Of a stretch of 64,000 nt of DNA, positions 1,964 to 61,934 are shown piece by piece (within the stretch, counting starts at the first letter, position 1; every line of letters starts with the position of its first letter). This DNA comes from Mobula hypostoma (Eukaryota). The notes under the pieces are model-generated. The model made no database searches. It was not told where the DNA came from and saw only the letters and a list, made by a program, of their open reading frames with translations. The translations under genes were made by a program, and so were the position numbers. The stretch lies in assembly GCF_963921235.1 (NCBI RefSeq), contig NC_086097.1, positions 37,078,001 through 37,142,000 on the forward strand, given 5' to 3'.

Positions 1964-2859
1964 CTGCAAATACAAAACATTAAGTACACAGTTACTGACA
2001 AAAATGAAACCTGTGCACTTTACCTGAAATAAACACAACTGTCATAGTTGACATACAATGAACCCCTAAATTTTCTGTGGTTACACAGATATAGCACCAA
2101 AAGGATCCAGACTGAATATCATTCTTGATTTATAATCCAATATAAAAAAAATGGAGTAGAATACTTAACCATTCAGCGTTCCAATAATTGGGCTGATTTC
2201 TGTCTAGACACATACAATTGCAATCAGGCTTTTATGGTTCATTTGTTAACATTCTCACTCCTATCAGTTCAATTGTAATTTCCATTCTTTACAGTTTAAA
2301 AATATGGTAGTAACTGACTCCCATGTAATGATAAAATGTTGTACAGTTTGGAGACAAATTTAAAACAAAGGTCCAATCAGCTTGATCAGGTGTGCAAAGA
2401 TCTTACCACCCCTCTCAAAGAGCACCAAATCTCTTTCCAATATTTCCCCTCAGCAACACCGCAGCTTTTGGGAACTTGGTGCATTCACTGACACCCACAT
2501 ACAATCCCAGGTAAAATGTGACAGCAGAATAAAATTTAAAATATTATACATTATTCTGCCTACAATTCCTCAAATTCAACCTTGCAACAATGTTTGTTGT
2601 TGTATAGCAATTTCAATTTTCATATTGGTTGTTTAAAAAAAGCAGAAGTTCCAGGGATACAAATGTCAAAATGCCTCTTTTGATTGAACGTTAGCAACAT
2701 TTACATATTTCCCATCTGTTGTGCCACATATTCATGGGGGAAAATGAAAAATATATTCACTGGTACCTCACATAGTGCTCAGGATACCTTCCCAGGAACA
2801 AGGGCACTAGCACTAGTGGTATCAATGGAAAACAGGGCCATTATGACAGTATATATGGG

Positions 2860-3114
2860 ATGGCGTAATGCCTCAGAGTCTCAGAGACCTGGATTCAATC
2901 CTGACTTCCAGTGCCATCCAGGTTTTTTCCCTTGTGATAGTGCGAATGTCCTCTGGATACTCCAGTTTCCTTGTACATTTCAGAAATATGCAAGCTGGTA
3001 GGCTGATTTGTAAACTGGCCTTAGTACGTAGGTGAATGGTGAAGTCTGGGGGACCTGATGAGAATAAAACCCATTTTATTAGTGCAAATAGGATACTTCA
3101 TTATTGAACAAACT
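2860..3114 (+). mobile_element. Degenerate tRNA-derived SINE
   Basis: B-box-like ggattcaatcc followed by a core resembling the SINE at 31946. Confidence 0.45.
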
Positions 3115-3128
3115 TGGTAGGATGAAGG

Positions 3129-3355
3129 CAAACAACAGGAATTCTGCAGGTGCTGGAAATTCAAGCAACACACATCAAAGTTGCTGGTGAACGCAGAAGG
3201 CCAGGCAGCATCTGTAGGAAGAGGTGCAGTCGACGTTTCAGGCCGAGACCCTTTGTCAGTCCTGACGAAGGGTCTCGGCCTGAAACGTCAACTGCACCTC
3301 TTCCTACAGATGCTGCCTGGCTGCTGCGTTCACCAGCAACTTTGATGTGTGTTGC
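3129..3355. mobile_element. Fold-back Penelope-derived element with hammerhead motif and 14-bp TSD
   Basis: Inverted arms of ~95 bp (3164-3356) centred at ~3260, with the same sequence as the 3' terminus of the Penelope-like copy at 11404-12893. Flanked by TGGTAGGATGAAGG (3115-3128) and TGGTAGGATAAAGG (3356-3369). Confidence 0.88.
3257..3294 (+). ncRNA. Minimal type I hammerhead ribozyme motif
   Basis: cagtc-CTGACGA-aggg tctcgg cct-GAAA-cg-TC-aactg; the CUGANGA/GAAA/UH core is intact. Confidence 0.7.
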
Positions 3356-4340
3356 TGGTAGGATAAAGGATTTTGTTTCCCTCCTGTATATCTCTATGGA
3401 CAGTGGTTTAAACCCTGGCCCTCCTCAAACTCTGTGCTGTAATCCTTGCTAAGTGTTCAGTACTCTTCTGGCACTCACACAGCAATAAGACAGTTGAATA
3501 ACCACAAGGCTCAGTATGGAATACGTCACACTTCCTTATCATTGATCTTGCTGTCATGGGGAATTCTTCCTGCTGGAGAGAAAGCCACGCAGTCAAAGAT
3601 GGAGACAAAGGCTTCCATCACATCCAAGAGGATGAGATGAAGATAACACAGGGTTCAGGCCATCTGCCAGCATAACAACTACCAGTCAGTCCTCTGCAAT
3701 GCTCCAGATTCATGATGCCAGTCAGGACCCCAAGCCCCATATTTCCGTGTTCAGTAGTCACACTGTTCAACCCAACACCAGTCCTCACGAGCAGCTTCTG
3801 CACACTGTCTCAGTGGTTCACTCCGTACCACGCGGCAACAAGATCACCACTTATTACTGCAGGAATGCCAGCGAAGGACAGGAGTTCACACCAGGTTTCC
3901 CCCGAGCATAGCAGGGCACAACTCAAACACATCTTTTCTGGGCTGTGAATGCTTAGCCTCCAAAACCAAGTGCACTTCTACAAATCAGTGCTGTGTAGGT
4001 CAAGCTAGATGGAATATTGACGTAAATGCAAATGAAGAAATATTCCACACACTTTCAGCTTAGTCCTAGGTAACTAGAGGCACTTTTGAGTAGTCAGCTT
4101 TCTGGGGCTCTGTCAACTTTATTAGCACCTTGACTAATAATTGTCAATTATTACATCATGTTGAATTCCAGCAGCTAATATGTTATTACAACTGTTCCAG
4201 TGTTTTTACTTATGACTCTTACAATTTTATTACGACCTTTAGAAACACCTAATACTCAGATTCTCATGTTCAATTAAAAACAATTAGCTCAGATCAGCCA
4301 GCAAATGAAATCACACTCAACGATAGTTTTTGCTTTCTTA

Positions 4341-4475
<135 letters not shown>

Positions 4476-5457: not shown

Positions 5458-5657
5458 TACGAGGGGTAATTGACTTCCAGAAAGTGGTCCACAGCAGGGA
5501 TGATTGATAAGTTCGTGGCCTAAGGTAGAAGTTGAGTTATTAACTTCAAATTTTCTGCATTTTCACTCAAAGAGTTGAACTGCATGTGCATGTAACGAGA
5601 GCTGTATAACTCATCTCCTTCTACCTTAGGCCACAAACTTATCAATCACCCCTCGTA
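5458..5657. mobile_element. Mariner-derived MITE inserted in CR1 ORF1
   Basis: Ends TA-CGAGGGGT...ACCCCTCG-TA; shares internal sequence with the element at 55794-56242. Confidence 0.8.
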
Positions 5658-5944: not shown

Positions 5945-8900
5945 ACAGTAATCACAGTGATTCATTGGTTAGAGAAACAGACAAGAGGTTCTGTGGGCAA
6001 GAACGAGGTTCCGAGATGGTTTATTGCCTTGCAGGTACCAGGGTCAATCATATCTCAGATTGAGTATGTGGCATTCTTAATTGGGTGAGTGAGCAGTCTT
6101 AGGTTGTGGTCCACATTGGTACCAATGACACTTGTAGGAAAGGTGACAAGGTCCTGCAAAGTAAGCTTAGGGAGTTAGGTACTAAATTAAGGGGTAGGAC
6201 CTCCAGGGTTGTGATCTTGGGATTGCTACCCATGCCAGGTGGGGTTTAATCTAGTTTTGCAGGAGGTTGAGAACCAGATTGCCAGAACAGTGAGTGGAGA
6301 GGTTGTGGAGGCAGATATTGGTAAGACCTCAGACAAAGTTAAGGAATCAAAAGGTCGAGCATGGTGTGACTAGTGACCTGTGCTGTCTATATTTAAATGC
6401 AAGAAATATTGTTGGAAAGGCGGATAATAGTGCTGAAGATGAGGGTTGCTGGTTTACAAACAGAGGCAATGTGTAGTGAGGAGAGGCTGTTGATAGGGCA
6501 AAATTGCAGTCAACAGGATGAGTTGCAATGTAAAAGGCAAACAAAATCAAAAAGGGTGAAAACAGGACAGAAGGTGTTATATTTGAATGCCCACAGTATA
6601 CAGAATAAGGTAGATGAACTTGTAGCACAATTACAGACTGGCTGGTATGATGTTGTAGGCATCACTGAATCATGGCTGAAAGAAGATTATAGCTGGGAAC
6701 TTAATATCCAAGGATACACATTGAATTAAAAGGTCAGGCAGGAAGGCAGAGGAGGCGGTGTTGCTTTGTTGGTAAAAAATCATTAGAGAGGACATAGGGT
6801 TGGAAGGTGTTGAATCATTGTGGATAGAACTAAGGAACTGCAGGGGTTAAAAGACCCTAATGGGAGTTGTATACAGACCCCCAAACAGTAGTAAGGATGT
6901 GGCCTACAACTTACAATGGGAGATAGAAAATGCATGCCAAAAGGCCAATGTTCCAATAGTCATGGGGGATTTCAATATGCAGGTAGACAGGGAAAATCAG
7001 GTTGATGGTGCATTACAGGAGGGGGAATTTCTAGAGTGTCTGTGAGATGTCTTTTCAGAGCAGCTCGAGGTTGAGCCCACTAGAGGATTGGCTATTCTGG
7101 ATTGACCCTTAGGTCAAAGAACCCTACCTGATTGAATTCACCTTGAAATTTGAGAAGGAAAAGCTGAAGTCAGATGTATCAGTACTACAGTGGAGTAAAG
7201 GGAATTACAGAGGCATGAGCGAGGATTTGGCCAGAATTGATTGGAAAAGAACACTGAAAGGGGAGATGGCAGAGCAGCAATGGTTGGAATTTCTGGAAGC
7301 AATTCAGAAGACACAGGGTATATATATCCCAAAGGGGAAAGACTTTCACAACCATGGCTACAAGAGAAGTCAGAGCCAACATAAAAGCCAAAGAGAAGGC
7401 ATTTAATAGACAAAAATTAGTGGGAAGTTAGAGGATTGGGAAGCTCTTAAAAACCAGAGGGCAACTAAACAAAATCATTAAGAAGGTAAAGATGGAACAC
7501 AAAAGTAAACTAGCCAATTATATTAAAGAGGATACCAAAATTTCTTCAGATGCATAAAGTGTAAAGAGAGGCGAGACTGCTGGAATTGATGTTCAAGAGG
7601 TAGTAATGGGGGACAACGAAATGGCAGATGATCTGAATAAGTATTTTGCATCAGACTTCACTGTGGAAGTTCCAGGTGTCAGAGGTCATTAAGTGTGTGA
7701 AGTTACCATAACTAGAGAGAAGGTTCTTGGGAAACTGAAAGGTCTAAAGGTACATAAGTCACCTGGACCAGATGGTGTACACCCCAGAGTTCTGAAAGCG
7801 GTGGTTAAAGAGATCATGGAGGCATTAGTAATAGTCTTTCAAAAATCACTAGATTCTGAAATGGTTCTGCAGAATAGCAAATATCACTCCATTCTTCAAG
7901 AAGGGAGAGAGGCAGAAGAAAGGAAACTGTAGACCAGTTAGTTTGACCTCAGTGGTTGGGAAGATATTGGAGTTAATTATTAAGGATGAGGTCTTAGGGT
8001 ACTTGGAGGCACATGATAAAATAGGCCATAGTTAGTATGGCTTCAGGGGAAAATATTGCCAGAAAAATCTGTTGGAATTCTTTGAAGAAATAACAAGCTG
8101 TATAGTCAAAAGAGAATCGGTTGATGTTGCGCTGTAAAGACCTTTGACAAGTTGCCACATAAGTGACTGCTTAACAAGCTGCAAGCCCATGGAATTACAG
8201 GAAAGATTCTAGCATGAGTAAACCAGTAACTGATTTGCAGGAGCAAAGAGTGGGAATAAAGGGAGCCTTTTCTGGCTGACTGCCAGTGACTAGTGGTGCT
8301 CCACAAGGGTCTGTGTTAGGACCGATTCTTTTTCGTTTATATGTCAATTTGGATGATAGAATTGATGGCATTGTTGCAAAGTTTTCAGACGATATGAAGA
8401 TAGGTGGAGGGGCAGGTAGTTTTGAGGAAGTAGAGAGGCTACAGAAGGACTTAGATTAGGAGAATGGACAAAGAAATAGCAGATGGAATACAGCGTCGGA
8501 AAGTGTATGGTCATGCACTTTGGTAGAAGAAATGAAAGGGTTGACTATTTTCTAAATGGACAGCCAGTACAAAAAACCGAGGTACAAAGGGACTTATGAG
8601 TCCTTGTGCAGGATTCTCTAAAGGTTAATTTGCAGGTTGAGTCTATGGAAGGCAAATGCAATGTTAGCATTCATTTCAAGAGGACTAGAGTCTAAAAGCA
8701 AGGATATAATGCTGAGGCTTTATAAAGCACCGGTGAGGTCTCAGTTGGAATAGTGAGAGAAATTTTGGGCCCCTTATCTTAGAAAGGATGTGTTGAAACT
8801 AGAGGGTTCAAAGGATGTTCATGAAAGTGATCCCAGGATTGAATGCTTGCCATATAAAGAGCGTTTGATGGTTCTAGGCCTGTATTCATTAGAATGCAGA

Positions 8901-9559
8901 AGAATCAGGGATGACCACATTGAAACCTATCGAATGGTGAAAAGCCTTGACAGAGTGGATGTGGAAATAATGTTTCCTGTGGTGGGAGAGCCTAAGACCA
9001 AAGGACACAGCCTCAGAATAGAGGGGTGTCCTTTTAGTACAGAAATGAGGAGGAATTCCTTTAGCCAGAGATTGGTAAATCTGTGAAATTCTTTGCCACA
9101 GGCGGCTGGGGAGGCAAAGTCTTTATGTATATATATAAGGCAGAGATTGATAGGTTCTTGATTGGTCAGAGTATGAAGGGATATGGGAAGAAGGCAGGAG
9201 AATGGAGCTGAGAAGAAAATTGGATCAGCCATGATGAAATTGCGGAGCAGACCCGATGGGCCATATGGCCTACTGTGCTCCTATATCTCATGGTCTTATG
9301 GTCTATTACTCATCAGAGCGACTCATCACAAATACAAGCTGAATTGTTTGATCAGCAATTACTTGCCTGCTGCCAAACACTGTCCTTTGAGACCAACTTC
9401 ACGAACTTCCCTAAACTCAGTACATTGAGTCAAGGGCAGTTGAAAATATGCAGTTATTTATTTCATCAACATTCAATCTCATTGCATTCCAACATTTTTC
9501 TGTCTTCCAAGGACCCTAATTACATTATTCCAAAAACTTTCATTCAATGAACTCATTCA

Positions 9560-9919: not shown

Positions 9920-10182
9920 CTTTCCTGCCTATCACCTCCCTGCTTCCTCTCCCCCACCCCTTTATCTTTCCCCTGACTGGTTTTTCACCTGGAACCTTCC
10001 AGCCTTCTCCTTCCCACCCTCTTTATAGGGCCTCTGCCCCTTCCCTCTTCAGTCGTGACGAAGGGTTCCGGCCCAAAACATTGGCTGATCGTTTCCACGG
10101 ATGCTGCCCGACCTGCTGAGTTCCTCCAGCGCATTGTGAGTGTTGCTTTGACCCCAGCATCTGCAGAGTATTTTGTGTTTGC
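9920..10182 (+). mobile_element. Penelope-like 3' terminal fragment with decayed hammerhead
   Basis: Pyrimidine-rich tract, then gtgacgaagggttccggcccaaaac, then gatgctgcc...cagcatctgcag. Confidence 0.75.
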
Positions 10183-11403: not shown

Positions 11404-12893
11404 CTGTATTGGCGCTGCTTCCTGCACGCATGCGGAGCTCGTTGACTTCATTAACTTTACCTCCAACTTTCACCCTGCCCTCAAGTTTACCTGGTCCATT
11501 TCCAACACCTCCCTCCCCTTTCTAGATCTTTCTGTCTCTATCTCTGGAGACAGCTTATCTACTGATGTCTACTATAAGCCTATTGATTCTCACAGCTATA
11601 TGGACTATTCCTCTTCTCACCCTGTCTCTTGCAAAACTGCCATCCCCTTTTCGCAATTCCTTCATCTCCACCGCATCTGCTCTCAGGATGAGACTTTTCA
11701 TTCCAGGACAAGGGCGATGTCCTCCTTTTTTAAAGAAAGGGGCTTCCCTTCCTCCACCATCAACTCTGCTCTAAAACACATCTCTCCCATTTCACACACA
11801 TCTGCTTTCACTCCATCCTCCCGTCACCCCACCAGGAATAGGTTTCCCCTGGTCCTCACCTACCACCCCACCAGCCTCCGGGTCCAACATATTATTCTCC
11901 GTAATTTCCACCACCTCCAACAGGATCCCACCACTAAGCACATCTTTCCCTTCCCCCCTCTCTCTGCTTTCTGCAGGGATCGCTCCCTACGCAACTCCCT
12001 TGTCCATTCGTCCCCCCCATCCCTCCCCACTGATCAACCTCCTGGCACTTATCCTTGTAAGTGGAACAAGTGCTACATATGCCCTTACACTTCCTCCCTT
12101 ACCACCATTCAGGGCCCCAGAAAGTCCTTCCAGGTGAGGCAACACTTCACCTGAGTCAGTTGGGGTGATATACTGCATCCGGTGCTCCTGATGTGGCCTT
12201 CTATATATTGGCGAGACCCGACGCAGACTGGGAGATCATTTTGCTGAACACCTACGCTCTGTCTGCCAGAGAAAGCAGGATCTCCCAGTGGCCACACATT
12301 TTAATTCCACATCCCATTCCCATTCTGACATGTCTATCCACGGCCTCCTCTACTGTAAAGATGAGGCCACACTCAAGTTGGAGGAACAACACCTTATATT
12401 CTGTCTGGGTCGCCTCCAACCTGATGGCATGAACATTGACTTCTCTAACTTCCGCTAATGCCCCACCTCCCCCTCGTACCCCATACGTTATTTATTCATA
12501 TACACACATTCTTTCTCTCTCTCTCCTTTTTCTCCCTCTGTCCCTCTGACTATACCCCTTTCCCATCCTCTGGGTTCTTTCCCCCCCCTCCCTTTTCCTT
12601 CTCCCTGGGCCTCCTGTCCCATGATCCTCTCATATCCCTTTTGCCAATCACCTGTCCAGCTCTTGGCTCCATCCCTCCCCCTCCTGTCTACTCCTATCAT
12701 TTTGGATCTCCCCCTCCCCCTCCCACTTTCAAATCTCTTACTAGCTCTTCCTTCAGTTAGTCCTGACGAAGGGTCTCGGCCCAAAACGTCGACTGTTCCT
12801 CTTCCTAGAGATGCTGCCTGGCCTGCTGCATTCACCAGCAACTTTGATGTGTGTTGCTTGAATTTCCAACATCTGCAGAATTCCTCGTGTTTA
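11404..12893 (+). mobile_element. Penelope-like retroelement, 5'-truncated (RT C-terminus, GIY-YIG endonuclease, terminal repeat)
   Basis: IGAASCTHAELVDFINFTSNFHPALKFTW...FLDL...YYKP; linker CKWNKCYICPY; GVIYCIRCS*CGLLYIGET...HF...LEEQHLIF..G.LQPDGMN (GIY-YIG). Hammerhead motif at ~12758-12795 with GAAA changed to AAAA. Confidence 0.92.
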
Positions 12894-14619: not shown

Positions 14620-15297
14620 CCCCAACAGATTCTTAGAGGAAGTATTGGGGTTGTCTGTTGTATGTGGTGTTCCCAATGTGGCCTCCTTTACCTTGATGAG
14701 GCCCGGTGTAAATTGGGGACTGCTTTGTTGAGCACCTGCGTTCCATTCTCCAAAAGTGGAATTTCCTGGTGGCCATCTATCGTAATTCCTGTCCCCATTC
14801 CCATTCCACTGTGACTGTCCGTAGCCTCTTCTGCCACGATAAGGGCACTCTCAGGGTAGAGCAGCATATTCTGTCTAGGTAGCCTCCAACGTGATGAACA
14901 CGGGTTTCTCCTTCCAGTATGTTTTTTTCCCCCTGAACCATTATGGATAATTTCACTCACCTCAACACTAAACTAATTCCACAACCTACTCCATTCTCCT
15001 CTTCTTTCTCCAGTCTGGGCTCTCGCCTCTTCTCACCTGCCACACACCTCCCCAGTGCCCCTCTTTCTTCCTTTTCTCCCATGTGCCACTCTCTTCGGTC
15101 AGGTTCCTTTTTCTCCAGCCCTTTATCTTTCCCACCCACCAGGCTTCATCTATCACCTTCGAGCTTGTCCTCCTTTCCATCCCCCCTCCTCTTTATTCTG
15201 GCCTCTTCCCCTTCCTTTCCAGTCCTGAAGAAGGGCTTAGGACCGAAACATCAATTGTTTATTCATTTCCATACTTGTTGCCTGACCTGCTGAGTTA
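14620..15297 (+). mobile_element. Older Penelope-like 3' fragment
   Basis: Decayed GIY-YIG region followed by a pyrimidine tract and ctgaagaagggcttaggaccgaaac. Confidence 0.75.
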
Positions 15298-15404
15298 GAA
15301 GACAAATTGCAAATACAATAAATAAATAATGTTTAGCACAAAAGTTGTGGATTCCTTGAAAATGTTGTGGAATCAGTTTAGTGTTGAGGTGAGTAAAATT
15401 ATCC

Positions 15405-15950
15405 TGTTAAGATGAAACCACACTCAGGTTGGAGGAACAACACCTTATATTCCGTCTGGGTAGCCTCCAACCTGATGGCATGAACATTGACTTCTCTAAT
15501 TTCTGTTAATGTCCCACCTCCCCTTCATACCCCATCCCTTATTTACTTATTTACTATTTTTTTTCCCTTTTTTTCCTCTTTTTTTCTCCCTCTGTCTGTC
15601 TCACTGTAACTCCTTGCCCATCCTCTGGGCTCCCCTCCCCCTTTCTTTCTCCCTGGCCCTCCCGTCCCATGATCCTCTCTCTTCTCCAGCCTCATATCCC
15701 TTTTGCCAATCAACTTTACAGCTCTTAGCTCCATCCCTCCCCCTCCTGTCTTCTCCTATCATTTTGGACCTCTTCCCCCTCCCCCACCAAATCTCTTACT
15801 ATCTCTTCTTTCAGTTAGTCCTGACGAAGGGTCTCGGCCCGAAACGTCAACTGTACCTCTTCCTATAGATGCTGCCTGGCCTGCTGCGTTCACCAGCATT
15901 TTTTGTGTGTGTTGCTTGAATTTCCAGCATCTGCAGATTTCCTCGTGTTT
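15405..15950 (+). mobile_element. Penelope-like 3' fragment nested in a Rex1-like 3' UTR
   Basis: Closely similar to 12355-12893 (LEEQHLIFRLGSLQPDGMNIDFSNF). Flanked by taaaattatcc / tgaagttatcc, a possible TSD. Confidence 0.88.
15812..15853 (+). ncRNA. Minimal type I hammerhead ribozyme motif, sense to TRMT5 intron 1
   Basis: cagttagtc-CTGACGA-a-ggg tctcgg ccc-GAAA-cg-TC-aactg. Core and stem II are intact; predicted cleavage is after 15848. Confidence 0.72.
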
Positions 15951-16745
15951 GAAGTTATCCATGATGATTCAGGAGCCTGATGGGTGAAGGGTAATAACTG
16001 TTCCTGAAACTGGTGGTGTGGGGCCTAGGGTTCTGGGATCGCTTCCTGATGGCAGCATTGAGAAGAGAGTATGACCTGGATGCTGGGGGTTGGTGGGGGG
16101 GGGGTCTTTGATGATGATTGCTGGTTGGGGGGGGGGGTTGTCTTTGATGATGATTGCTGCTTTCTTGTGGCTCCTTGTGGACGTGCCCAGTGGTTGAAAG
16201 GCCTTTTCCTGTGATAGCTGTGCTGTATCCACTATTTTTTTGTAGGTTTTTCAGTTCATGGGCATTGGTGTTTCCATAACAGATCGTGATGAAACCAGTC
16301 AGAATATTCTCCACTGTGCATCGATAGAACTTTGTCAGAGCTTCAGATGACATGCACAGACTTCTGAGAAGCAGAGGCGCTGCTATGCTTCTTTGTAATG
16401 ACTCTTACGTGCTGGTCCCAGGATAGATCCTCTGAAGGGATAACACCAAGGAATAAAAGGTATTGACCCTCCCCACCTCTGATGCCCTAATGAGAACTGG
16501 TTCACAGACCTCCATTTTCCTCCAACTGTAGTCAATAATCAACTCTTTGGTTTTGCGACATTGAGTGAGAGGCTGTTGTTGTGGCACCATTCGCCAGATT
16601 TTCAATCTCCCTCCTGTATACTGATTCATCACCACCTTTGATTCAGCCAACAAACTTGCATTTGGTCTTGGAGCTGTGCTTGACCTCACAGTCATAAGAA
16701 CAAAGTGAGACAAGCAAGAGGCCAACCACGCAGCCTAGTCGGTGA
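15951..16745 (-). mobile_element. Rex1/Babar-like LINE 3' fragment
   Basis: MSSEALTKFYRCTVENILTG...HPGHTLFSMLPSG...FRNSYYPSPIRLLN and KTKELIIDY on the minus strand. Confidence 0.85.
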
Positions 16746-18809: not shown

Positions 18810-21800
18810 TTTAAGCAGAGTGTCCATTGTGGGTGTGGCCATATTGTGAGGGTATGTGGTGACAGCGGGGAGCTGAGGCTTTGGCGAGAAGTGGCAGAGG
18901 CTAACATGAGTTTCTGGTAAGTTTTATTTTTTTTAAATTTCTTCATTATTGCACAGGTAGAGCAGCAAGAATGGAACCCAGGGCAGCAGTGGTGCTCCTC
19001 CTGCATGATATAGGGTGACCTCCAGTGTCCCTGATGACTACTCCTTCGAGAAGTACATTCAGCTGCAACTCCTTGCAGATTGTGTTAGAAAACTGGATGA
19101 CCTACCGATCACTCAGAAGAATGAGGAGATGATAGATAGGAGCTACAGGAAGGCGGTAACGCTTAAGTTGCAGGAGGCAAGTAGCTGGGTGACTGTTAGG
19201 AGAGGGAAAAACAATAGACACACAATGTAGAGTACACCTGTGGCCATTCCCTCAGTAAAAAGTATACCGCTTTGGATACTGTTGATCGGGGAAAAATACC
19301 AGGAGAAATACCTGAAAGACCAGGTCTCCACCACTGAGTCTGGTTCTGTGGCTCAGAGGAAGGGGGAGAAGAGGAGAGTGATGATGACAGGAGATTCAAT
19401 AGTTAGTGAAACAAAAGAGGAGAATCTGTAGATGTGGAAGAGACTCCTGGATGGTATACTGCCTTGCAGGTGTCAGGGTTGGGGATAGCTCAGATCAAGT
19501 CCACAGCATTCTTAAGGGGCGGGGAGGGCAGCCAGAAGTTGTGGTACGTATTAGTACTAGTATAAGTTCAATGGAACAATACCCTAGCAGGGATGACAGT
19601 GGAACAACAATGGCAGATATTTCTGGGAATAATGCAGAAGGTGCAGGATCAGTTCATTCCAAAGAGGAAGAGAGATCCTAATGGGAGTAAGGGGAGGCCG
19701 TGGCTGACAAGGGAAGTAAAGGACAGTATAAAGGTAAAAGAGAAGAAGTATAACATAGCAAAGATGAGTGGGAAGCCGGAGGATTGGAAAACTTTTAAAG
19801 AGCAACAGAAGGTAACTAAAAATGTAATACGCGGAGAAAAAATGAGGTACGAAGGTAAGCTAGCCAAGAATATAAAGGAGGATAGTAAAAGCTTCTTTAG
19901 GTATGTGAAAAGGAAAAAAATAGTTAAGACCAAAATTGGGCCCTTGAGGACAGAAAAGGGTGAATTTATTATGGGGAACAAGGAAATGGCAGACGTATTG
20001 AACAGGTAGTTTGGATCTGTCTTCACTAGGGAAGACACAAACAATCTCCCAGATATAATAGTGGCCAAAGGACCTAGGGTAATGGATGAACTGAAGGAAA
20101 TTTATATTAGGCAGGAAATGGTGTTGGATAGACTGTTGGGTCTGAAGGCTGATAAGTCCCCGGGACCTGATGGCCTGCATCCCAGGGTACCTAAGGAGGT
20201 GGCTTTAGAAATCGTGGACGCATTGGTAATCATTTTCCAATGTTCTATAGATTCAGGATCAGTTCCTGTGGATTAGAGGGTGGCTAATGTTGTCCCACTT
20301 TTCAAGAAAGGATGGAGAGAGAAAACGGGGAATTATAGACCGGTTAGCCTGACGTCGGTGGTGGGAAAGATGCTGGAGTCAATTATAAAAGATGAAATTA
20401 CGGCACATTTGGATGGCAGTAACAGGATAGGTCCAAGTCAGCATGGATTTACGAAGGGGAAATCGTGCTTGACTAACCTTCTGGAATTTTTTGAAGATGT
20501 AACTATGAAAATGGACAAGGGAGAGGCAGTGGATGTAGTGTACCTGGACTTTCAGAAAGCCTTTTGTAAAGTCTGACATAGGAGATTAGTGGGCAAAATT
20601 AGGGCACATGGTATTGGGGGCAGAGTACTGACATGGATTGAAAATTGGCTGGCTGACAGGAAACAAAGAGTAGCGATTAACAGGTCCCTTTCAGAATGGC
20701 AGGCGGTGACCAGTGGGTACCGCAGGATTCAGTGCTGGGACCGCAGCTGTTTACAATATCCATTAATGATTTAGATGAAGGGATTAAAAGTAACATTAGC
20801 AAATTTGCAGATGACACAAAGCTGGGTGGCAGTGTGAAATGTGAGGAGGATGTTATGAGAGTGCAGGGTGACTTGCACAGGCTGGGTGAGTGGGCGGATG
20901 CATGGCAGATGCAGTTTAATGTGGATAAATGTGAGGTTATCCACTTTGGTAAGAACAGGAATGCAGATTATTATCTAAATGGAGTCAAGTTAGGAAAAGG
21001 GGAAGTACAATGAGATTTAGGTGTTCTTGTACATACATCACTGAAAGCAAGCATGCAGGTACAGCAGGCAGTGAAGAAAGCTAATGGCATGCTGGCCTTC
21101 ATAACAAGGGGAATTGAGTATAGGAGCAAAGAGGTCCTTCTGCAGCTGTACAGGGCCCTGGTGAGACCACACCTGGAGTATTGTGTGCAGTTTTGGTCTC
21201 CAAATTTGAGGAAGGACATACTTGCTATTGAGGGAGTGCAGCGTAGGTTCACAAGGTTAATTCCCAGGATGGGAGGACTGTCATATATTGAAAGATTGGA
21301 GCGACTGGGTTTGTATACACTGGAATTTAAAAGGATGAGAGGGGATCTGATTGAAACATATAAGATTATTAAGGGATTGGACATGCTGGAGGCAGGAAGC
21401 ATGTTCCCGCTGATGGGTGAGTCCAGAACCGGAGGCCACAGTTTAAGAATAAGGGGTAGGCCATTTAGAACGGAGTTGAGGAAAAACTTTCACCCAGAGC
21501 GTGGTGGATATGTGGAATGCTCTGCCCTAGAAGGCAGTGGATGCCAAGTCTCTGGATGTTTTCAAGAAAGAGATGGATAGAGCTCTTAAAGATAGCGGAA
21601 TCAAAGGTTATGGGGATAAGGCAGGAACTGGATACTGATTGTGGGTGATCAGCCATGATCACAGTGAATGGCGATGCTGGCTCGAAGGGCCGAATGGCCT
21701 ACTCCTGCACCTATTGTCTATAACAATAGCCAGGAAAAGGCATGAGGTCCTAAAAAGCAAATACGGGGAGCTCGGAAGGAAGTGAGAAAGCAGATCCTCA

Positions 21801-24087: not shown

Positions 24088-25020
24088 AACACAAGAGATT
24101 CTGCAGATGCTGGAAATCCAGAGCAATACACACAAAATGCTAGAAGAACTCAGCAAGTCAGTCAGCATCTGTGGAACTGAATAAATACTTGACGTTTGAG
24201 GCCGAGAATCCTTCTTCAGGACTAGAAAGGAAGGGGGAAGAAGTCAGAAAAAGGTCGGGGAGAGGAAGGATTACGAGCGAGAAGGTGATCGGTGAAGCCA
24301 GGTGGGTGGGGAGGGGGGATAAAGTAAGAAGCTAGGAAGTGATAGGTGGGAAAGATAAATGGCCAAAGAAGATAGAATCTAATAGGAGAGGAGAGTGGAT
24401 CATGGAAGAAAGGGAAGTAGGAGGGGAACCAGGGAAGGTGATAGCCAGGTAGGGAGAAGAGGTAAGAGGGGTGCCAGAGTGGGAAATTGAAGAAGGGGGA
24501 GGGGGGAAGTTACCAGAAAATGGAGAAATCAATGTTCATACTATCAGGTCAGGTTGGAGGCTACCCAGACGAAATAGGGGGTGTTGCTTCTCCATCCTGA
24601 GAGTGGCCTCATGGTGGCAGAAGAGGAAGACATAGACCGACATGTCGGAATGGGAATAGGGATTGGAATTAAAATGGTTGGCCACTGGGAAATCCTTTTG
24701 GTTGCAGATGGAGTGAAGGTGTTCAACCAAGTGTTCCCCCAATCTACCTTGGGTCTCACCAATATAGAGGAGGCCACATAGAGGGCCCAACGTAAATTAC
24801 CCCAACAGATTCGCAGGTGAAATGTTGCCTCACGTGGAAGGACTGTTTGGGGCACTGAATGAAGGTGAGGAAGGAGGTGAATAGGCAGGTGTAGCACTTC
24901 TTCCGCTTGCAGGGATAAGTACCAGGTGTGAGATTAGTGGGGAGGGGGGCGGTAAAGATGTGTTTAGTGGTAAGATCCCATTGAAGATGGCAGAAGTTGT
25001 GGAGAATGGTGTGCTTAAAT
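24088..25020 (-). mobile_element. Penelope-like 3' fragment
   Basis: Minus ORFs PGTYPCKRKKCYTC...VGVIY and CGLLYIGETQGRLGEHLVEH...LQPD. Terminal repeat with decayed hammerhead at ~24190-24225. Confidence 0.88.
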
Positions 25021-25378
25021 TTGATACGAGTTGATAACCAGCCCCTTGAAATGGATTTAGTCTCAACCTGAAATGTTGACAATTCATTTTCCCCCACAAA
25101 TGAATTATTCCGCAGTTGCACCAGATTCCTGCATCTGCAGTCTTTTGTGTCCCCTCTGAAACAAGTTGAGAATGAGAAGAGTCACAGATGGGATATATGA
25201 ATGGGAGGAAAGGATAGAAATTAGAAGCAGAGTTCATAGAAATTTCTTGTTGGGGCAAGAACAAGAAGTACTACTAATATGGAAAAAAGACAGACAGGGG
25301 AGTGAATTTTAGATTTCCAAAGCAAGCACTTTTGAAGCATCTTTGGAATCAGTGGAACTTCAAGATCTGAGATGCATT

Positions 25379-25609
25379 CAACACATACAAAATGCTGGAG
25401 GAACTCAGCGGGCCAGGCGGCATCTATGGAAAAGAGTAAAGTCAACATTTCGGGCTGAGACCATTCATCAGGACCATACTGATGAAGGGTCTCGGCCCAA
25501 AATGTCAACTGTACTCTTTTCCATAGATTCTGCCTGGCCTGCTGAGTTCCTCCAACATTTTGTGTATGTTGCTTGGATTTCCAGCATCTGCGGATTTTCT
25601 GTTGTTTGT
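25379..25609. mobile_element. Fold-back Penelope-derived element with two opposed hammerhead motifs and 15-bp TSD
   Basis: Inverted arms centred at ~25475. Perfect direct repeat GATCTGAGATGCATT at 25364-25378 and 25610-25624. Confidence 0.88.
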
Positions 25610-25794
25610 GATCTGAGATGCATTGTTTCTTCACTTCTTAGAGAACCTATTTTATAAAAATAACATTGTCATTTTCAGTACTGTAATGTATTCCTTTGTG
25701 TTTCGCTTGGCAAAAATCTGATCAATGAGCTGGTGATGCAGAAACTTGAGGTTTCTTTTCAGTCTAACTAATTGATTTTCTTCCTTCAAATTAG

Positions 25795-32292: not shown

Positions 32293-33902
32293 CTTGCAAA
32301 AGTTTGGGTACTCCTGGTAAAAATTTCTGTTACTGTGAATAGTTAAGTGAGTAGAAGATGAACTGATCTTCAAAAGTCATAAAGTTGAAGATGAAACATT
32401 CTTTTCAACATTTTAAGCAAGATTAGTGTATTATTTTTGTTTTGTACAATTTTAGAGTGGGGGAAAAAAGGAAAAGAGCACCATGCAAAAGTTTGGGCAC
32501 CCCGAGATTTGAGCTCTTAGATGACCTTTATCAAGGTCTCAGACCTTAATTAGCTTGTTAGGGCTATGGCTTGTTCACAGTCATTGTTAGGAAAGGCCAG
32601 GTGATGCAAATTTCAAAGCTTTATAAATACCCTGACTCCTCAAACCTTGTCCCAACAATCAGCAGCCATGGAGTCCTCTAAGCAGTTGCTCAGCGCTCTG
32701 AAATTTAAAATAAATGATGCCCACAAAGCAGGAGAAGGCTATAAGAAGATAGCAAAGCGTTCTCAGGTAGCCGTTTCCTCAGTTCGTAATGTAATTAAGA
32801 AATGGCAGTTAACAGGAACGGTGGAGGTCAAGTTGAGGTCTGGAAGACCGAGAAAATTTTGCTCGTAGGATTGCTAGAAAGGCAAATCAAAACCCCCGTT
32901 TGACTGCAAAAGACCTTCAAGAAGATTTAGCAGACTCTGGAGTCGTGGTGCACTGTTCTACTGTGCAGTGACACCTGCACAAATATGACCTTCATGGAAG
33001 AGTCATCAGAAGAAAACCTTTCCTGCATCCTCACACAAAATTCAGCGTCAGAAGTTTGCAAAGGAACATCTAAACAAGCCTGATGCATTTTGGAAACAAG
33101 TCCTGTGAACTGATGAAGTTAAAATAGAACTTTTTGGCCACAATGAGCAAAGGTATGTTTGGAGGAAAAAGGGTGCAGAATTTCATGAAAAGAACACCTC
33201 TCCAACTGTTAAGCATGGGGGTGGATCGATCATGCTTTGGACTTGTGTTGCAGGCAGTGGCACGGGGAACATTTCACTGGTAGAGGGAAGAATGAATTCA
33301 ATTAAATACCAGCAAATTCTGGAAGCAAACATCATGCCGTCTGTAAAAAAAAAAGCTGAAGATGAAAAGAGGATGGCTTCTACAACAGGATAATGAACCT
33401 AAACACACCTCAAAATCCACAATGGACTACCTCAGAGGCATAAGCTGAAGGTTTTGCCATGGCCCTCACAGTCCCCCGACCTAAACATCATCGAAAATCT
33501 GTGGATAGACCTCAAAAGAGCAGTGCATGCAAAACGGCCCAAGGATCTCACAGAACTAGAAGCCTTTTGCAAGGAAGAATGGGTGAAAATCCCCCAAACA
33601 AGAATTGAAAGACTCTTAGCTGGCCACGGAAAGTGTTTACAAGCTGTGATACTTGCCAAAGGGGGTGTTACTAAGTACTGACCATGCAGGGTGCTTGAAC
33701 TTTTGCTTCCGGCCTTTTTCCTTTTTTGTTATTTTGAAACTGTAAAAGATGGAAATAAAAAAGTAATCTTGCTTAAAATATTAAAGAAATGTGTCATCTT
33801 TAACTTTATACCTTTCGGAAATCAGGTCATCTTTTACTCACTTGGCTATTCACAGTAACAGAAATTTTGACCGGGGTGCCCACACTTTTGTATGCCACTG
33901 TA
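32293..33902 (+). mobile_element. Tc1-family DNA transposon with ~200 bp IR/DR termini and a disrupted DD34E transposase
   Basis: Transposase from ATG 32668 to 33681 with GYKKIAK, GRPRK, TDEVKI, QDNEPKH, WPSQSPDLNIIENLW; stops and frameshifts present. Terminal motif caaaagtttggg(c/t)ac is repeated within each long IR; the right end is ...gccactg-TA. Confidence 0.93.
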
Positions 33903-37475: not shown

Positions 37476-37745
37476 GGAGCAATTTCGATTTTGAGGATCA
37501 CATATTTATGTGTTAGAGAAGCTGACTAGCAATTTAAATTGTTAGATTCGAATTCTATGCTGTGATTGTAATGTAGACTGTAAATTCAATCTAATAGGAT
37601 GCAATCTAACATGCAATTAAAAGATATCATTAATCATTGAAAATCTCAGCAGTGGCATTGGGTGAGACATGACAAAAATAGTTCTAATGGTGGGGGTGGG
37701 GTTAAACTGAATCATGAGAAGCCAAAAACATCACATTCAAGGTGA

Positions 37746-37933
37746 CACACATCAAAGTTGCTGGTGAACGCAGCAGGCCAGGCAGCATCTCTAGGAAGAG
37801 GTCCTGACGAAGGGTCTCAGCCTGAAATGTCGACTGTACCTCTTCCTAGAGATGCTGCCTGGCCTGCTGCGTTCACCAGCAACTTTGATGTGTGTTGCTT
37901 GAATTTCCAGCATCTGCAGAATTCCTGTTGTTT
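37746..37933. mobile_element. Fold-back Penelope-derived element with hammerhead motif and 13-bp TSD
   Basis: An inverted arm of ~55 bp, then gtcCTGACGAagggtctcagcctGAAAtgTCgactg, then the full terminus. Perfect direct repeat ACATTCAAGGTGA at 37733-37745 and 37934-37946. Confidence 0.88.
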
Positions 37934-39142
37934 ACATTCAAGGTGAGATGTGATTGATTGCATAGCAGCACAATTCTCTACATATGCACTTGAGGGACAG
38001 AACAGATGAATGTTTTTGTATTCTTCACTGTATTGCCTGTGATTCAACCAGACTTCAGGTTAAATTTAAAATTTATTTCACAAGTAGCAAAGATGATGAT
38101 TATCTTTTGCTTTAAGACAGCTATGTTGAAAGTGAATTTTGAGTAAACCAGGAGCACAGTTGTATAGTCTGTTATTTTTATAGCACATAATAGAAAATGG
38201 TATTTTTACTCTTATAGTGCACCTTCCATAAAACAGAAAATATATTTAATTGCGTAAGAAATCATAGCAGCTAGTACATGGAACAGGGATCTATATTTAG
38301 CTGCAGTTTACAATATTGTCTAACTTGATTCAACTTTATCAGTATTCTTCAGATTATAGGCTACATTTGAGTCTACCTGTTTACACGTCTGAGCTATTCT
38401 CATTCCATATTTAAAAAGTGCTTCACACAGGTTAAAAATAATAAAAGTGTTTTGGATTCTGCTTAGTGGGAGAAACTTTGATGAGATTCTTTCAAGGAAG
38501 GGAATAACCAAAAATTATTGAAACACCATTGTAATTTTTCCAACATCTGCCTCTGCGACACGGATGGATGAGCATCCTGACTATTAAAACAGCAGTAATG
38601 CAGAGATAAGAAATGTGATCTTCACAGTACAATGAGTCATTATGCTCAGGAGAGAACAGAAAGGAAAGGAAGAAGAGGAGATGAATCATCTTGGTTTATT
38701 TAGTAAAAACACAAATTCTGACATTTGCATCCAATTCTAATAGTTAAGAGTTGGAATCTTAAACATTTTGCATTTTGAACCTTCAAGTTGAATGTAATTC
38801 CTCTGTAAAAAAAAATGGTTGAGAAATACTTTACAAATGAAGTGAAAGTGACAAATAGCACCTTGATCTTCATAAATTCATTTAGGTTATTCCAATCTTT
38901 AGAATACCTGGAGAAATGACAAATTAAGTCACTAGAACCCAACAAAATACTTAGTTTTGGTTATAAAAATAACTGCTCATTTTCTGAAAGAAGTTTTTTT
39001 TTGCTATATCCTGCATGATTTGGAGAAAGGCTTTACAATCTTAATGAATATTAATCTTCAGAATTCCTAGTAAATACTGATACAGCGGTCTAAATGAGCC
39101 ATGAGCCATATATATTCCCATACAGACCTCCTATTTTTAAAA

Positions 39143-44900: not shown

Positions 44901-45429
44901 TTAAGACTATTTTGCCTCCCTACATGGGCATAATAATGCTTACCCACAGTTCTAACAGCTGTCATCCCTTCAACTGCACACTGCAAAAAACTGCAAGCTG
45001 TACAAATATCCCCCTTGCAGCCACATGGTTATCAATTTTAAAAAAAACAAATTTACAAACTAAAATAAGCGTTGTACTGAGTTATGAGAGCAATCGCATT
45101 ACCATTTTTTGCTGCTTTGAAAACATCTTCTTTGAATTATGTAATCCATATCACAGTACAAGTAGTTCATTAGATATATTCAATGGGCCCAGCTGACCTA
45201 ATAACACACATGTATATACAAGGACATGAAATCGAATAGATAACATGACCATATTTCTTCAAAAGTGAGACTAAAAGGAAAAGGAGCAAATAATGGTGAG
45301 AAAGAAGTGGCTCAAGTAATGCAGTAAAAATACAAAACAATTCACTGTTCTTTGCAGTACTATATAAAAGGATAAATGCCGGTAAGTCTGGATAAAACCT
45401 GATGATTAACAAATAAACTTATCAAGCAC

Positions 45430-47910
45430 TATGCCAGAAATTCAAAAGTGTCAGGGGGCAGAAGTAAGTGTACCAAGGAGAAGGCTCTTAGTAAGCTAAA
45501 AAGTCTGAAGGTAGATAAGTCACCTAAACCAGATAGACTACGCCCCAGGGTTCAGAAAGAGGTAGCTGAAGGGATTGTGGAGGGATTAGTAATGATCTTT
45601 CAAGAATCACTAGACTGTAGAGAACTGGAAAATTGCAAATGTCACACTGACCTTTGAGAAAGGAAATTACAGGCTCGTTAGCCTGACTTCAGTGGTTGAG
45701 ATGATGTGGAGTCCATTATTTAGGATGAGATTTCAGGGTACTTGGAGGTACATGATAAAGCAGGCCAAAGTCAGCACAGTTTCCTTAAGGGGAAATTTTG
45801 CCTCATAAATCTGTTGGAATTCTTTGAGAAAATAACAGCCAGGATATACAAAGAAGAGTCAGTGAATGTTGTTTATTTGGATTTTCAGGCCTTTGACAGG
45901 GTGCCACACATGAGGCTGCTTAACATGATAACAGCCCATTGCATTACAGGAAAGATGCTAGCAGTGACAGAAGATTGGCTGATGGCAAGAGGCAAAAAGT
46001 TAAGAATGACGAGGGCCTAGTCTGGCTGGCTGCCAGCGACAAGTGGTGTTCTGCAGAGGTCATTATTGGAATTGCTTCTTTTCACATTATATGTCAATGA
46101 TTTGGATGATGGAATTGATGGTTTTGTAGCCATGCTTGCAGATGATACAAAGATAGGTGGAGGGGAAGAGGTGTTGAGGAATCAAGGAGTCTGCTGAAGG
46201 ACTTGGACGGATTGTGGAAATGGGCAAATAAGTGGCACATGGAATATAGTGTAGGGAAATGTATGGTCATATACATTGGTAGAAGGAATAAAGGTTAAGA
46301 CTATTTTCTAAACAGGGAGAAAATTCAAAATTCAGAGGTGCGAAGGGAATTGGGAGTCCTTGTGCATGATTCCCTAAAGATTAGCTTGCAGGTTGGGCTG
46401 GTGGTAAGGAAGGCAAATACAATGTTAGCATGCATTTAGAGAAGACAAGAATATAAGAGCAAGAATGTGATGCTGAGGCAACAAGTTCGCAGACGACACC
46501 ATGGTGGTTGGTCTGATCAGAGGGGATAACGAGACGGCCTACAGGGACGAGGTTCTGCACCTGTCCGTGTGGTGCGCCAACAACAATCTGGCCCTTAACA
46601 CCCAAAAGACCAAGGAGATCATTGTGGACTTCAGGCATGCCAGCAGTCACACTCACGTCCCCATCTACATCAACGGAACTGTAGTGGAGCGTGTATCAAG
46701 CTTCAAATTCCTTGGTGTCCACATTCCGAGGATCTCACCTGGTCCCTGAACTCCTCCATCCTGATCAAAAAGGCCCAACAGCACCTTTATTTCCTGCAGA
46801 GCATAAAGAAAGCTCACCTCTGTCCCAGGATACTGACGGACTTTTACCACTGTACCATTGAGAGCATACTCACCAACTACATTTCAGTGTGGTATGGCAA
46901 CTGTCCCGTATCGGACCGCAAAGCACTCCAGCGTGTGGTGAAAACTGCCCAGTGGATTATCGGCACCCAATTGCCCACCATTGAGAACACCTACCATAAA
47001 TGCTGCCTGGGCAGGGCGAAAAACATTATCAGGGATGCATCTCACCCTAACCATGGACTTTTTACTCTCCTCCCATCCGGTAGGCACTACAGAAGCCTCC
47101 GCTCCCGCACCAGCAGGCACAGGAAGAGCTTCTTCCCTGAGGCTGTGACACTGCTGAACCTCTCATCATAGCACTAAGCAGTATTGCATCCGTATTGTAC
47201 TGTCTCAGTACTTTTATATTTGTGACCTGTAGCCCTTTTTTTATTCGCAGTTATTTTGTAAATAACACTATTTTTTGCACATCTGGTCAAAAGCTAAATG
47301 CATTTCATTGGCTTTGTATCTGTACTCGGCATAATGACAATAAAGTTGAAACTAATCTAATCTAATCTAATATGGCATTGGTCAGACCTTGCTTAAGAGT
47401 AGGTTTGAACCCATTTAAGAACAATGTGCTGATATTGGAGAGAGTCCAGTGGAGGTTTATGAGAATTATTCTGGGAATGAAAGGGTTAACACACAAGGAA
47501 CACTTGATCAGGGCCTGTAACTGCTGGAGTTTAGAAGAATGAAAGGGGATCCCACCAAAACCTATTGAATAATGAAAGGCCTAGACAGAGTGGATGTGGA
47601 GAGGGTGTTTCCAGTAGTGGGTGAGTCTAGGACCAGAGGGTCCAGCCTCAAGAATAGAGTAATATCTATTTAGAACAGAGATGAGAAGGAATTTCTTTGG
47701 CCAGAGGGTGGAAATTTATGGAATTCATTGTCTGCGATGGCTTTGGAGGCCAAGTCACTAAGTATTGAAGCAAAGATTGAAAGGTACTTGGTTACTCAGG
47801 GCCTCAAAGGTTACATGGAGAAGGCAGGAGAATAAGGTCAAGAGGGATAATAAATGGAATGTCAGTAGACTTGATGGGCCAAGTGGCAGATTCTGCTCTT
47901 GCATCTTATA
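45430..47910 (+). mobile_element. Decayed CR1 ORF2 interrupted by a Rex1-like insertion
   Basis: VDKSPKPD, INLLEFFE, YLDFQAFDRVPH, ADDTKIGG. Resumes at ~47371 (tatggcattggtcagacc) and continues to the tail. Confidence 0.85.
46481..47371 (+). mobile_element. Young Rex1/Babar-like LINE 3' part
   Basis: KFADDTMVVGLIRGDNETAYRDEV...KTKEIIVDFR...HPNHGLFTLLPSGRHYRSL; AATAAA and an (atcta)n tail. Confidence 0.9.
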
Positions 47911-55752: not shown

Positions 55753-55786
<34 letters not shown>

Positions 55787-55793
55787 GCACACA

Positions 55794-56238
55794 CGAGGGG
55801 TGATAGATAAGTTCATGGCCTAAGGAAGAAGGAGTCAATTTTAGAAAACCTAGCACATTTATTTTTCAACATAGTCTCCCCATCCCACCCCCTACATTTA
55901 CACACTTAGTCCAGTGGTCATGGAGCATACGGATCCCTTCTTTGTATTTAGACAGCTCTTGTTACATGCACGTGCAGTTCAACTCTTTGAGTGATAATGC
56001 AGAATATTTGAAGTTAATAACTCATCTCTTTCTACCTTAGGCCATGAGCTTATCAATCACCCCTGCTGCAGACCACTTACTGGAGGTCCAAGACACCGAC
56101 TTCTACAAAGAAGAGATCCGTATGCTCCACGACCACTGCACTAAGTGTGTAAATATAGGAGGGGACTATGTTGAAAAATAAATGTGCTAGGTTTTCTAAA
56201 ATTGACTCCTTCTACCTTAGGCCACAAACCTATCAATC

Positions 56239-56242
<4 letters not shown>
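55794..56242. mobile_element. Mariner-derived non-autonomous element with long inverted arms
   Basis: TIR CGAGGGGTGAT.GATAAGTT..TGGCCTAAGG.AGAAGGAGTCAATTTTAGAAAACCTAGCACATTTATTTTTCAACATAGTC is mirrored at the right end. Retains the mariner transposase C-terminus DFYKEEIRMLHDHCTKCVNIGGDYVEK* (~56098-56181). Confidence 0.85.
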
Positions 56243-56296
<54 letters not shown>

Positions 56297-60446: not shown

Positions 60447-60634
60447 TTACACCCACCGCCCCCTCATATGCCTTCATGCCCTGAACAATCAGAATCTATC
60501 AACCTCTGCCTTAAGTACTGTATACCTTTACCTATATTATATTCCTTCTATCATATTTTTGCTCAAAAACTTAACCTTATATTTGCTAAAATGAACTAGG
60601 AGACTATGTGACCCATTTAGCTTGGTTTAACTTT

Positions 60635-61920: not shown

Positions 61921-61934
61921 GAATCTTTGAATCA

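Follow-up and report, generated by a model that had tools for sequence, protein, structure and literature searches.

Two opposed Penelope 3' ends in a fold-back insert: a probable product of single insertion events, with one inner boundary fixed just upstream of a hammerhead motif

The question raised by this locus is whether a short palindromic insert that carries a hammerhead ribozyme motif belongs to a non-autonomous family that replicates as such or is an insertion product that Penelope-like elements (PLEs) make anew at each site. The window, which is the whole stretch of 64,000 nucleotides that was analysed, contains this insert (insert A) at 3129-3355 as 227 bp of non-coding DNA consisting of two opposed Penelope 3' terminal modules. 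It is bracketed by 14-nt direct repeats (3115-3128 and 3356-3369) that differ by one mismatch, and the first T of the right copy also fits the adjoining arm. In a control for the search for target-site duplications (TSDs), one of 300 random positions equalled insert A in score, and this position may be copy C itself, a second fold-back in the window. The left end of the insert is a 35-nt Penelope 'tail' (3129-3163, minus strand) that is present on one arm only and that terminates on its outer side where the linear copies E, F, B and H have their 3' end. The remainder of the tailed arm (3164-3259) is the terminal module in minus-strand sense, the tail-less arm (3260-3355) is the terminal module in plus-strand sense and ends at the inner, tail-less terminus, and the two arms meet head to head at an apex (3255-3266) that forms a short, perfect inverted repeat around 2 central nt. 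As RNA, the insert is predicted to form a single stem, about 95 bp long, with an energy of -194.5 kcal/mol (z -26.9; none of 200 shuffles was as stable), from which the 35 nt of 3129-3163 protrude unpaired as a one-sided extension. An earlier note, made from the letters of the window, had described an insert of about 227 bp with two opposed Penelope terminal repeats in a hairpin of about 95 bp, a 14-bp TSD and an extra terminus of about 35 nt on one arm; BLAST within the window, RNA folding and the repeat search bear out each of these features. The extra terminus equals the 'tail' described in the sections of the PLE literature consulted (PMC11167929, PMC8557442 and PMC3846280), and insert A corresponds to the published PLE insertion unit minus its open reading frame (ORF).

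The insert can be dated relative to its flanks by comparison with contigs of related organisms. A 1552-nt contig of organism D (run X12) aligns to 2750-3112 and to 3372-3750 with 16 letters between the flanks, compared to 18 expected for one copy of a 14-nt target and 259 in the window. Since this contig joins both flanks without the insert, insert A is a true insertion, the ancestral target of which may have been 12-14 nt long; the empty orthologous site in a relative, for which the earlier note had proposed a search, was found for insert A only, among the three fold-backs of the window. Flank contigs of organism B (run X7) reach 21-22 nt into both ends of insert A, as they do in run X1, the probable source of the window, an overlap that falls below the 31-nt bridging threshold; because these contigs enter both insert ends, organism B very probably shares the insert. 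The flanks around insert A diverge by 1.2% from organism B and by 4.9% from organism D, values that bracket the time of insertion and are consistent with the three differences in 95 positions between the two arms of insert A. The outer boundary at 3128-3130 is attached to many different flanks in the table of contig loose ends. Insert A went in as one unit, at one time, with its TSD. Two other features lie upstream: at position 3059, organisms B and D both carry 11 extra letters that are absent from the window, which points to a small deletion adjoining the insert in the lineage of the window, and a small peak of contig depth at 2852-2919 (200-1500 compared to 10-40) marks another short repeat fragment.

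The end module of which both arms are made occurs at nine loci by BLAST within the window, in three fold-backs (A, C and D) and six other copies (E, F, B, G, H and I), of which E, F, B, H and I extend upstream as linear copies. Copy C is a 231-bp fold-back at 25379-25609 on the plus strand (25364-25624 with its exact 15-nt TSD) that belongs to an older subfamily and has a near-symmetric apex with a few unpaired letters. Copy D is a 188-bp fold-back at 37746-37933 on the plus strand (37733-37946 with its exact 13-nt TSD), in which the tailed arm begins at the fixed boundary discussed below and the apex side of the inverted arm lacks about 38 nt by comparison, leaving the apex asymmetric. Thus, the earlier note was right about the positions and TSDs of two further fold-backs but not about their sharing one design with insert A, as the apex of D is asymmetric and C is of another subfamily. 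Copy E (11410-12893, plus strand, left limit approximate) is a decayed linear Penelope-like fragment of the same subfamily as A and D, with the end of the reverse transcriptase (RT), a CX4CxxC linker, a GIY-YIG frame broken by an in-frame stop, a 3' UTR and the module with its tail; copy F (15404-15951, plus strand) is a 5'-truncated linear copy with a tail and a possible 9-nt TSD (one mismatch); copy B (24088-25007, minus strand) is a linear copy that belongs to the older group and, though decayed, shows the linker, a remnant of the endonuclease and the tail; and copy I (14645-15296), placed by window BLAST and arm comparison, is an old linear Penelope copy, 66% identical, that ends about 70 nt into the module. 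Copy G (61786-61917, minus strand) is a solo piece without a tail; it shares its inner terminus with the short arms and continues upstream past the fixed boundary. No TSD or partner arm was found for it up to 64000, and it may represent an end of some longer insertion or rearrangement. Among linear and solo copies, the TSD search turned up candidates for F, H and E only, all weak and of 9-10 nt, and none for B or G. The tailed arm corresponds to the last 134 nt or so of the linear copies, and the short arms and copy G stop 35-41 nt before that end; the outer ends of the fold-backs are these two standard termini of the family, the tail end and the tail-less end, and the difference between arms is 35 nt in A and 38-41 nt in C and D.

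The arms of insert A align with 89-95% identity to the last 134-144 nt, at the 3' end, in copies E and F. Copy E matches RT/GIY-YIG polyproteins with an E-value of 4.9e-74 (11 matches among 944 candidates, with RVT_1 and some with GIY-YIG), among proteins the Penelope fragment is matched best by one of bamboo shark (60%), which points to a cartilaginous fish as the probable host, and the GIY-YIG frame of copy E has 34% identity (E-value 3e-13) to the Pfam GIY-YIG region of P0009; a direct Pfam scan of the decayed Penelope frames of the window gave no match. Judged by these alignments, both arms of insert A are the 3' end of RT/GIY-YIG PLEs, in agreement with the Penelope origin claimed for them, and their derivation from elements such as E and F supports the proposed mobilisation by a Penelope RT/GIY-YIG protein. 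The frames of copies E and B contain the CX4CxxC linker, and a CX2-5CxxC linker before GIY-YIG is given in the consulted part of PMC8557442 as a mark of the Neptune and Nematis clades, so that by this motif the parent element would be of Neptune/Nematis type. Outside the window, a 19-nt arm pattern was matched at one viral and 66 metagenome loci, none of which is a copy of the family by BLAST of the family end (one alignment of at least 28 nt, 35 nt long). The nine loci in 64 kb amount to about 140 per Mb, and contig depth summed over the module is 1.3-9.5 million compared to 9-13.5 on unique flanks in run X1, where summed depth is not a copy number and includes linear and solo copies as well as fold-backs. 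As a rough estimate, these two figures suggest that the end module is present in about 10^5 copies in the genome, in support of the very high copy number that had been expected.

Insert A plausibly lies in an intron, between a minus-strand exon at about 4341-4475 that matches Aa_trans (Pfam E-value 4.6e-7) and an exon-like minus-strand frame at 1834-2019, which is followed by another at 1479-1664. Exons of a TRM5 methyltransferase begin at about 25.8 kb on the plus strand, in the direction opposite to the Aa_trans gene. The host gene is presumably SLC38A6 and the intron its intron 2, an assignment based on synteny and consistent with the Aa_trans exon and the TRM5 neighbour. The host pre-mRNA reads the minus strand, which is the strand with the mutated hammerhead copy of insert A. 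The window also contains inverted repeats of 68-112 nt at 5463-5609 and 55768-56272 (the arms are 281 nt apart at 55768-56272, with a partner piece at 5.5 kb) that possibly represent a MITE-like DNA transposon family, frames at 33109-33728 that resemble a remnant of a Tc1/mariner transposase, and presumed LINE RT remnants with CR1-, Rex/L2- and RTE-like motifs at 7100-9100, 19500-21600, 45400-47200 and 58600-61300, which make up much of the window.

The layout of insert A is one that has been published. In PLE insertions described in the consulted parts of PMC8557442 and PMC3846280, an inverted 5'-truncated copy adjoins the element, a tail of 30-40 bp is present on one side, and the TSD is 8-10 bp; in Pen2a_Av of Adineta vaga the inverted pseudo-LTR (pLTR) is 37 bp shorter than the direct one, with a 31-bp tail, TSDs of 8-10 bp and palindromes at the junctions (PMC3846280). 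All three fold-backs of the window contain a head-to-head inverted copy, the one-sided tail of A is 35 nt long, and the TSDs are 14, 15 and 13 nt for A, C and D. Compared to the insertion unit of endonuclease-bearing PLEs (PMC3846280, PMC8557442 and PMC2377424, as far as consulted), the head-to-head arms, the one-sided tail (35 nt here, 31-37 published), the TSD, the shortening of the inverted arm by about the length of the tail and the junction palindrome are the same, whereas insert A has end modules only, without an ORF, and the TSDs of 13-15 bp exceed the 8-10 bp of A. vaga. In kind, then, insert A is already known as a minimal form of the published Penelope layout, to the extent that the cited sections describe it.

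The hammerhead motif on the plus strand (3257-3294) has an intact core, an extra A before a 4-bp helix II, a palindromic and loop-less helix III and four of five pairs in helix I, with a predicted cut after 3289. Scored by the features of the minimal type I descriptor in the sections consulted of PMC4209133, it fits that motif. The minus-strand copy has A in place of G8 in the core, and its helix I is broken by the loss of the two pairs that adjoin the core. Thus, the earlier description of a hammerhead on each strand at the apex holds for the plus strand and fails for the minus strand. Copy C has one intact and one mutated core, and copy D has the motif on one strand only. Whichever strand is transcribed, the sense hammerhead lies on the second arm and is paired with the first; in the predicted fold-back RNA of insert A, the GAAA has an unpaired probability of 0.001 and the opening of the hammerhead core costs 49 kcal/mol. 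A minimal motif needs a second copy on the same strand or the help of a protein. With one core mutated and the other buried in the hairpin, hammerhead activity would not be expected from insert A, a difference, along with the short helix II, from the minimal PLE hammerheads of PMC4209133, as far as these were consulted. Since the boundary between the arms is not at the cut site and the hairpin is predicted to prevent folding of the ribozyme, the hammerhead on this model is a passenger in insert A. Rfam gave no match in the window at gathering score, and no hammerhead model was matched; the ten matches to insert A below gathering score at E-values up to 10 were to nine miRNA precursor models and one lncRNA, and the candidate explanation of the insert as an miRNA was rejected, these being generic fits to a hairpin. 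A scan with the hammerhead pattern found no loci in the viral collection and none in genome contigs, and isolated hammerhead segments gave no significant z when folded, except for the inverted junction of copy D. It was also observed that the core is mutated in all three hammerhead copies that are apparently sense to host pre-mRNA (3210-3280 on the minus strand, 24170-24240 on the minus strand and 25465-25530 on the plus strand, mostly CpG-type changes, the intron membership of copy B being presumed) compared to two of six antisense copies, a difference that is not significant (p about 0.12).

Where the arms of such inserts meet can be followed in contigs of four runs aligned to 2750-3750, which contain 310 joints. 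Positions are given here for the best-supported 15 of the 310; the contigs are short, and joint counts from run X1 are a lower bound. The left sides of these 15 joints occupy 11 positions spread over 61 nt (3149-3210), and the right sides fall at 3257-3262 in 14 of the 15 and at 3267 in the other. Arms that reach above 3257 cannot appear as clean joints on this reference, and the near-symmetric apex of insert A is not among the counts; the arm starts of fold-backs within the window, which are free of such censoring, fall within 7 nt in five of six cases (chance 0.0001-0.003 if starts were uniform and independent). From the joint sides and the window arm starts together, one inner breakpoint is fixed and the other is free. 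The fixed boundary, which lies 28-33 nt upstream of the cut site, closely precedes the hammerhead core, and the apex of insert A sits at this preferred position (3257-3262). Among the loose ends (best 24 of 1213 rows), those at 3258-3259 have a low consensus agreement of 0.35-0.45, which suggests that this is where many copies start, with unrelated DNA alongside. The microhomology at the joints is 0 nt in seven, 1 nt in two, 2 nt in four and 3 nt in two of the best-supported 15 of 310; the letters between the sides are not known for 12 of these 15, and they number 1-4 nt in 11 of the best 12 of 340 rows. Some joints recur, one of them in five contigs with a depth of 339 compared to 9-13.5 on unique flanks in run X1, and could reflect repeated independent events, duplication or limited re-amplification. 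The cut site of the hammerhead as the apex was rejected, as none of the best-supported 15 of 310 joints and none of the six arms lie there (the short arm of copy D starts about 6 nt downstream of it), and microhomology as the sole cause of the fixed boundary is unsupported, as 35-93% of windows are equally rich in it and seven of the 15 have none. In run X9, a run guessed to be RNA, a contig with a joint of 3152 to 3262 has a depth of 696 and a linear contig of 1250 nt has a depth of 867, far above the others; these may be copies inside abundant transcripts, the contigs covering the repeat and hardly any unique flank, with neither strand, ends nor level readable from them.

The fixed boundary coincides with the end of a tract of 73-90% pyrimidine that terminates in YAG directly before the hammerhead in all six linear or solo copies (12715-12765, 15775-15825, 61880-61925 on the minus strand, 24222-24270 on the minus strand, 10005-10055 and 15175-15225) and that resembles both a 3' splice site and an initiator. 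The initiator consensus YYANWYY matches at the boundary in A, E, F, G and I and fails in H, with B scored off-register, and the matching letters also form helix I of the hammerhead. An initiator predicts a start at the A of 3258, and joints and loose ends centre on 3257-3260; a 3' splice site predicts 3260 together with a constant upstream exon, none of which is present among the best 24 of 1213 loose-end rows. A TACTAAC upstream of the boundary in copy G is presumably branch-point-like. According to the sections consulted, the Penelope of D. virilis has its transcription start and an intron inside the pLTR (PMC2377424), and that intron ends at the 5' side of helix I (PMC4209133). The fixed stop is tentatively read as the RNA template's 5' end, an interpretation held with slightly less than even confidence; a block or processing event at the pyrimidine tract and AG that resemble a 3' splice site is a rather unlikely explanation, and a pause of the RT caused by the sequence is somewhat more doubtful than that.

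The explanation of insert A that is considered probable is that it is a dead-on-arrival product, the shortest of its kind, of the insertion of an endonuclease-bearing PLE of Neptune/Nematis type, and that such products form afresh with every insertion event. The GIY-YIG domain would nick both target strands about 14 nt apart, the TSDs corresponding to a stagger of 13-15 nt, and each nick would prime its own cDNA on Penelope RNA, one at the start site at the tail end and the other at an internal start site, in a twin priming that a probable PLE dimer would carry out. At least one cDNA would run to the fixed stop, located some 135 nt away from the tail end, and the other would stop there or earlier, after which end repair would join the cDNA 3' ends head to head, the junction containing microhomology of 0-3 nt or a few inserted letters. 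In purified form, a PLE protein cleaves the two target strands, extends both of them and initiates reverse transcription at the two sites between which the tail lies, a dimer is predicted for it, and cleavage by the hammerhead is dispensable for insertion (PMC11167929, sections consulted). Because the outer ends of the fold-backs match RT start sites, the TSDs indicate a stagger and both strands are extended in vitro, twin priming is the simplest model. In insert A the tail is on one arm and two extra apex letters are on the tail-less arm, so that neither arm is contained in the other, which weakly favours two cDNAs over self-copying by an argument of 2 nt; the arms differ by three in 95, which is at least the distance of one arm from solo copy G, and hence one template and two templates cannot be told apart.

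The main rival to twin priming is self-priming, an improbable course of events in which the 3' end of a single cDNA at the boundary would anneal through a short inverted repeat and copy itself to give the inverted arm, as has been proposed for the inverted junctions of PLEs (PMC3846280, part consulted); the resulting sequences would be almost those of twin priming. The perfect short inverted repeat at the apex of A, the nesting of the inverted arm of D in its tailed arm with a 2-nt overlap, the 2-3 nt of microhomology in six of the best-supported 15 of 310 joints and the placement of both arms of one insert in one subfamily in all three fold-backs fit this course, but seven of the 15 joints have no microhomology, several have added letters, the arms of A are not nested, and the outer end of the inverted arm is at the tail-less RT start site, as in solo copy G, for which self-copying gives no direct reason. 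The apexes could alternatively be later deletions in unstable palindromes that all began longer or symmetric. Long palindromes are prone to deletion, and copy D can be read as A with an apex deletion; deletion should, however, move both sides of the apex, and in 14 of the best-supported 15 of 310 joints one side keeps to a span of 6 nt, while the loose ends at 3258-3259 suggest copies that begin there beside unrelated DNA. Among the explanations weighed, this one has the least credence, and it is highly improbable.

The remaining rival is the one that the earlier note had put forward alongside stereotyped abortive insertion, namely a palindromic family in which a fold-back master, at least for a subset like A, would be transcribed and retrotransposed whole by the Penelope protein. 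In its favour, A and C are both near-symmetric with lengths of 227-231 bp, some joint types recur in several contigs with a summed depth of tens of single copies, and in the sections consulted mobilisation in trans requires no more than pLTR sequences in a rotifer (PMC3846280) and non-autonomous PLE derivatives exist (PMC8557442; bioRxiv 10.64898/2026.07.22.740005). Against it, the three fold-backs of the window have three different apexes, the best-supported 15 of 310 joints have 11 left positions, and no one internal structure is fixed across copies. The fold-backs are also not a clade apart from the linear copies: A differs from D at 5-6 of about 96 positions, from the linear or solo copies E, F and G at 3-10 and from C at 21-27 (about 95-96 columns), and a tree of 12 arms and 96 columns, with one supported fork and a bootstrap not fully settled, splits A, D, E, F and G from C, B, H and I with support of 100/99. 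Since this fork places A and D and likewise C with linear copies, fold-backs arose in at least two subfamilies. Moreover, the template of such a family would be a hairpin of -190 kcal/mol in which the hammerhead and the region of the inner RT start are paired, its 5' end would have to hit the antisense of the RT start site exactly where independent formation needs no special cause, and near-symmetry is what two cDNAs ending at the same stop would produce. A replicating palindromic ribozyme family is therefore unsupported and very unlikely; if real, it would make the fold-back subset hairpin-RNA retroelements, unlike SINEs, MITEs or tandem retrozymes, with a repeated origin from different Penelope subfamilies. 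Independently made, stereotyped insertion products fit both the variety of apexes and the grouping by subfamily. The earlier note had stated that random breakpoints at the apex and short arm would indicate independent inverted truncations, and the outcome is mixed and mostly against a replicating family, as one inner breakpoint varies widely and the other is fixed. A MITE of the DNA-transposon type was rejected, as one end of the insert has an unpaired 35-nt tail and the TSDs are 13-15 nt long and differ in sequence.

Twin priming of independent insertions resembles two systems and departs from each. In the twin priming of L1 elements, opposite target nicks prime two cDNAs, and the outcome is a 5' part in inverted orientation that is joined through microhomology. 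The second L1 primer pairs with an internal, non-overlapping part of the RNA, whereas the two arms here are copies of one terminal segment, begun at two fixed starts. Poseidon of Anolis carolinensis (PAc), as described in the sections of PMC11167929 consulted, shares the two RT start sites that bound the tail, the cutting and extension of both target strands and a hammerhead that precedes the start sites by about 100 nt and is unneeded for insertion, but it is of the Penelope/Poseidon clade and the parent element here has the Neptune/Nematis CX2-5CxxC linker; the joining of two cDNAs was not found in those sections. Animal non-LTR retrozymes are likewise short, non-coding, derived from PLE pLTRs and equipped with a type I hammerhead (bioRxiv 10.64898/2026.07.22.740005, in part). 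They are head-to-tail tandems with at least two motifs on the same strand, whereas insert A is head to head with one motif per strand and no dimeric ribozyme in cis, and a retrozyme, with its complete same-strand hammerheads, was rejected on this basis. The tables of the retrozyme preprint include one chondrichthyan, an entry that may bear on novelty. Paired hammerhead motifs 100-700 bp apart on opposite strands have been published for Schistosoma (PMC4209133, part consulted). In the open literature consulted, with Repbase, Dfam and subscription journals outside its scope, no description of a palindromic non-autonomous PLE family was found; the parts of the open literature consulted yielded none of PLE twin priming or strong-stop products either, nor, with Repbase and Dfam outside the scope, of the Penelope family of insert A in cartilaginous fish. 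A fixed inner end just upstream of the hammerhead was likewise not found described in the sections of PLE literature examined.

As a kind of insert, insert A is of little import, and its value lies in the data that it provides on the origin of the inverted ends of PLEs, which is stated to be unresolved in the sections consulted of PMC8557442 and PMC3846280. Inserts of this hairpin type in introns may be a source of double-stranded RNA. The one-sided boundary that lies upstream of the hammerhead and away from its cut site would be a footprint of the RNA template's 5' end or of a block on that RNA. If it marks the RNA 5' end, an RT that begins synthesis within the upstream pLTR would reach the end of its template after 100-135 nt and yield a strong-stop-like product, and such run-off would explain the glut of short pLTR pieces. 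If confirmed, the fixed boundary would support a model of PLE insertion that is twin-primed and strong-stop-like and would account for the mass of short pLTR pieces.
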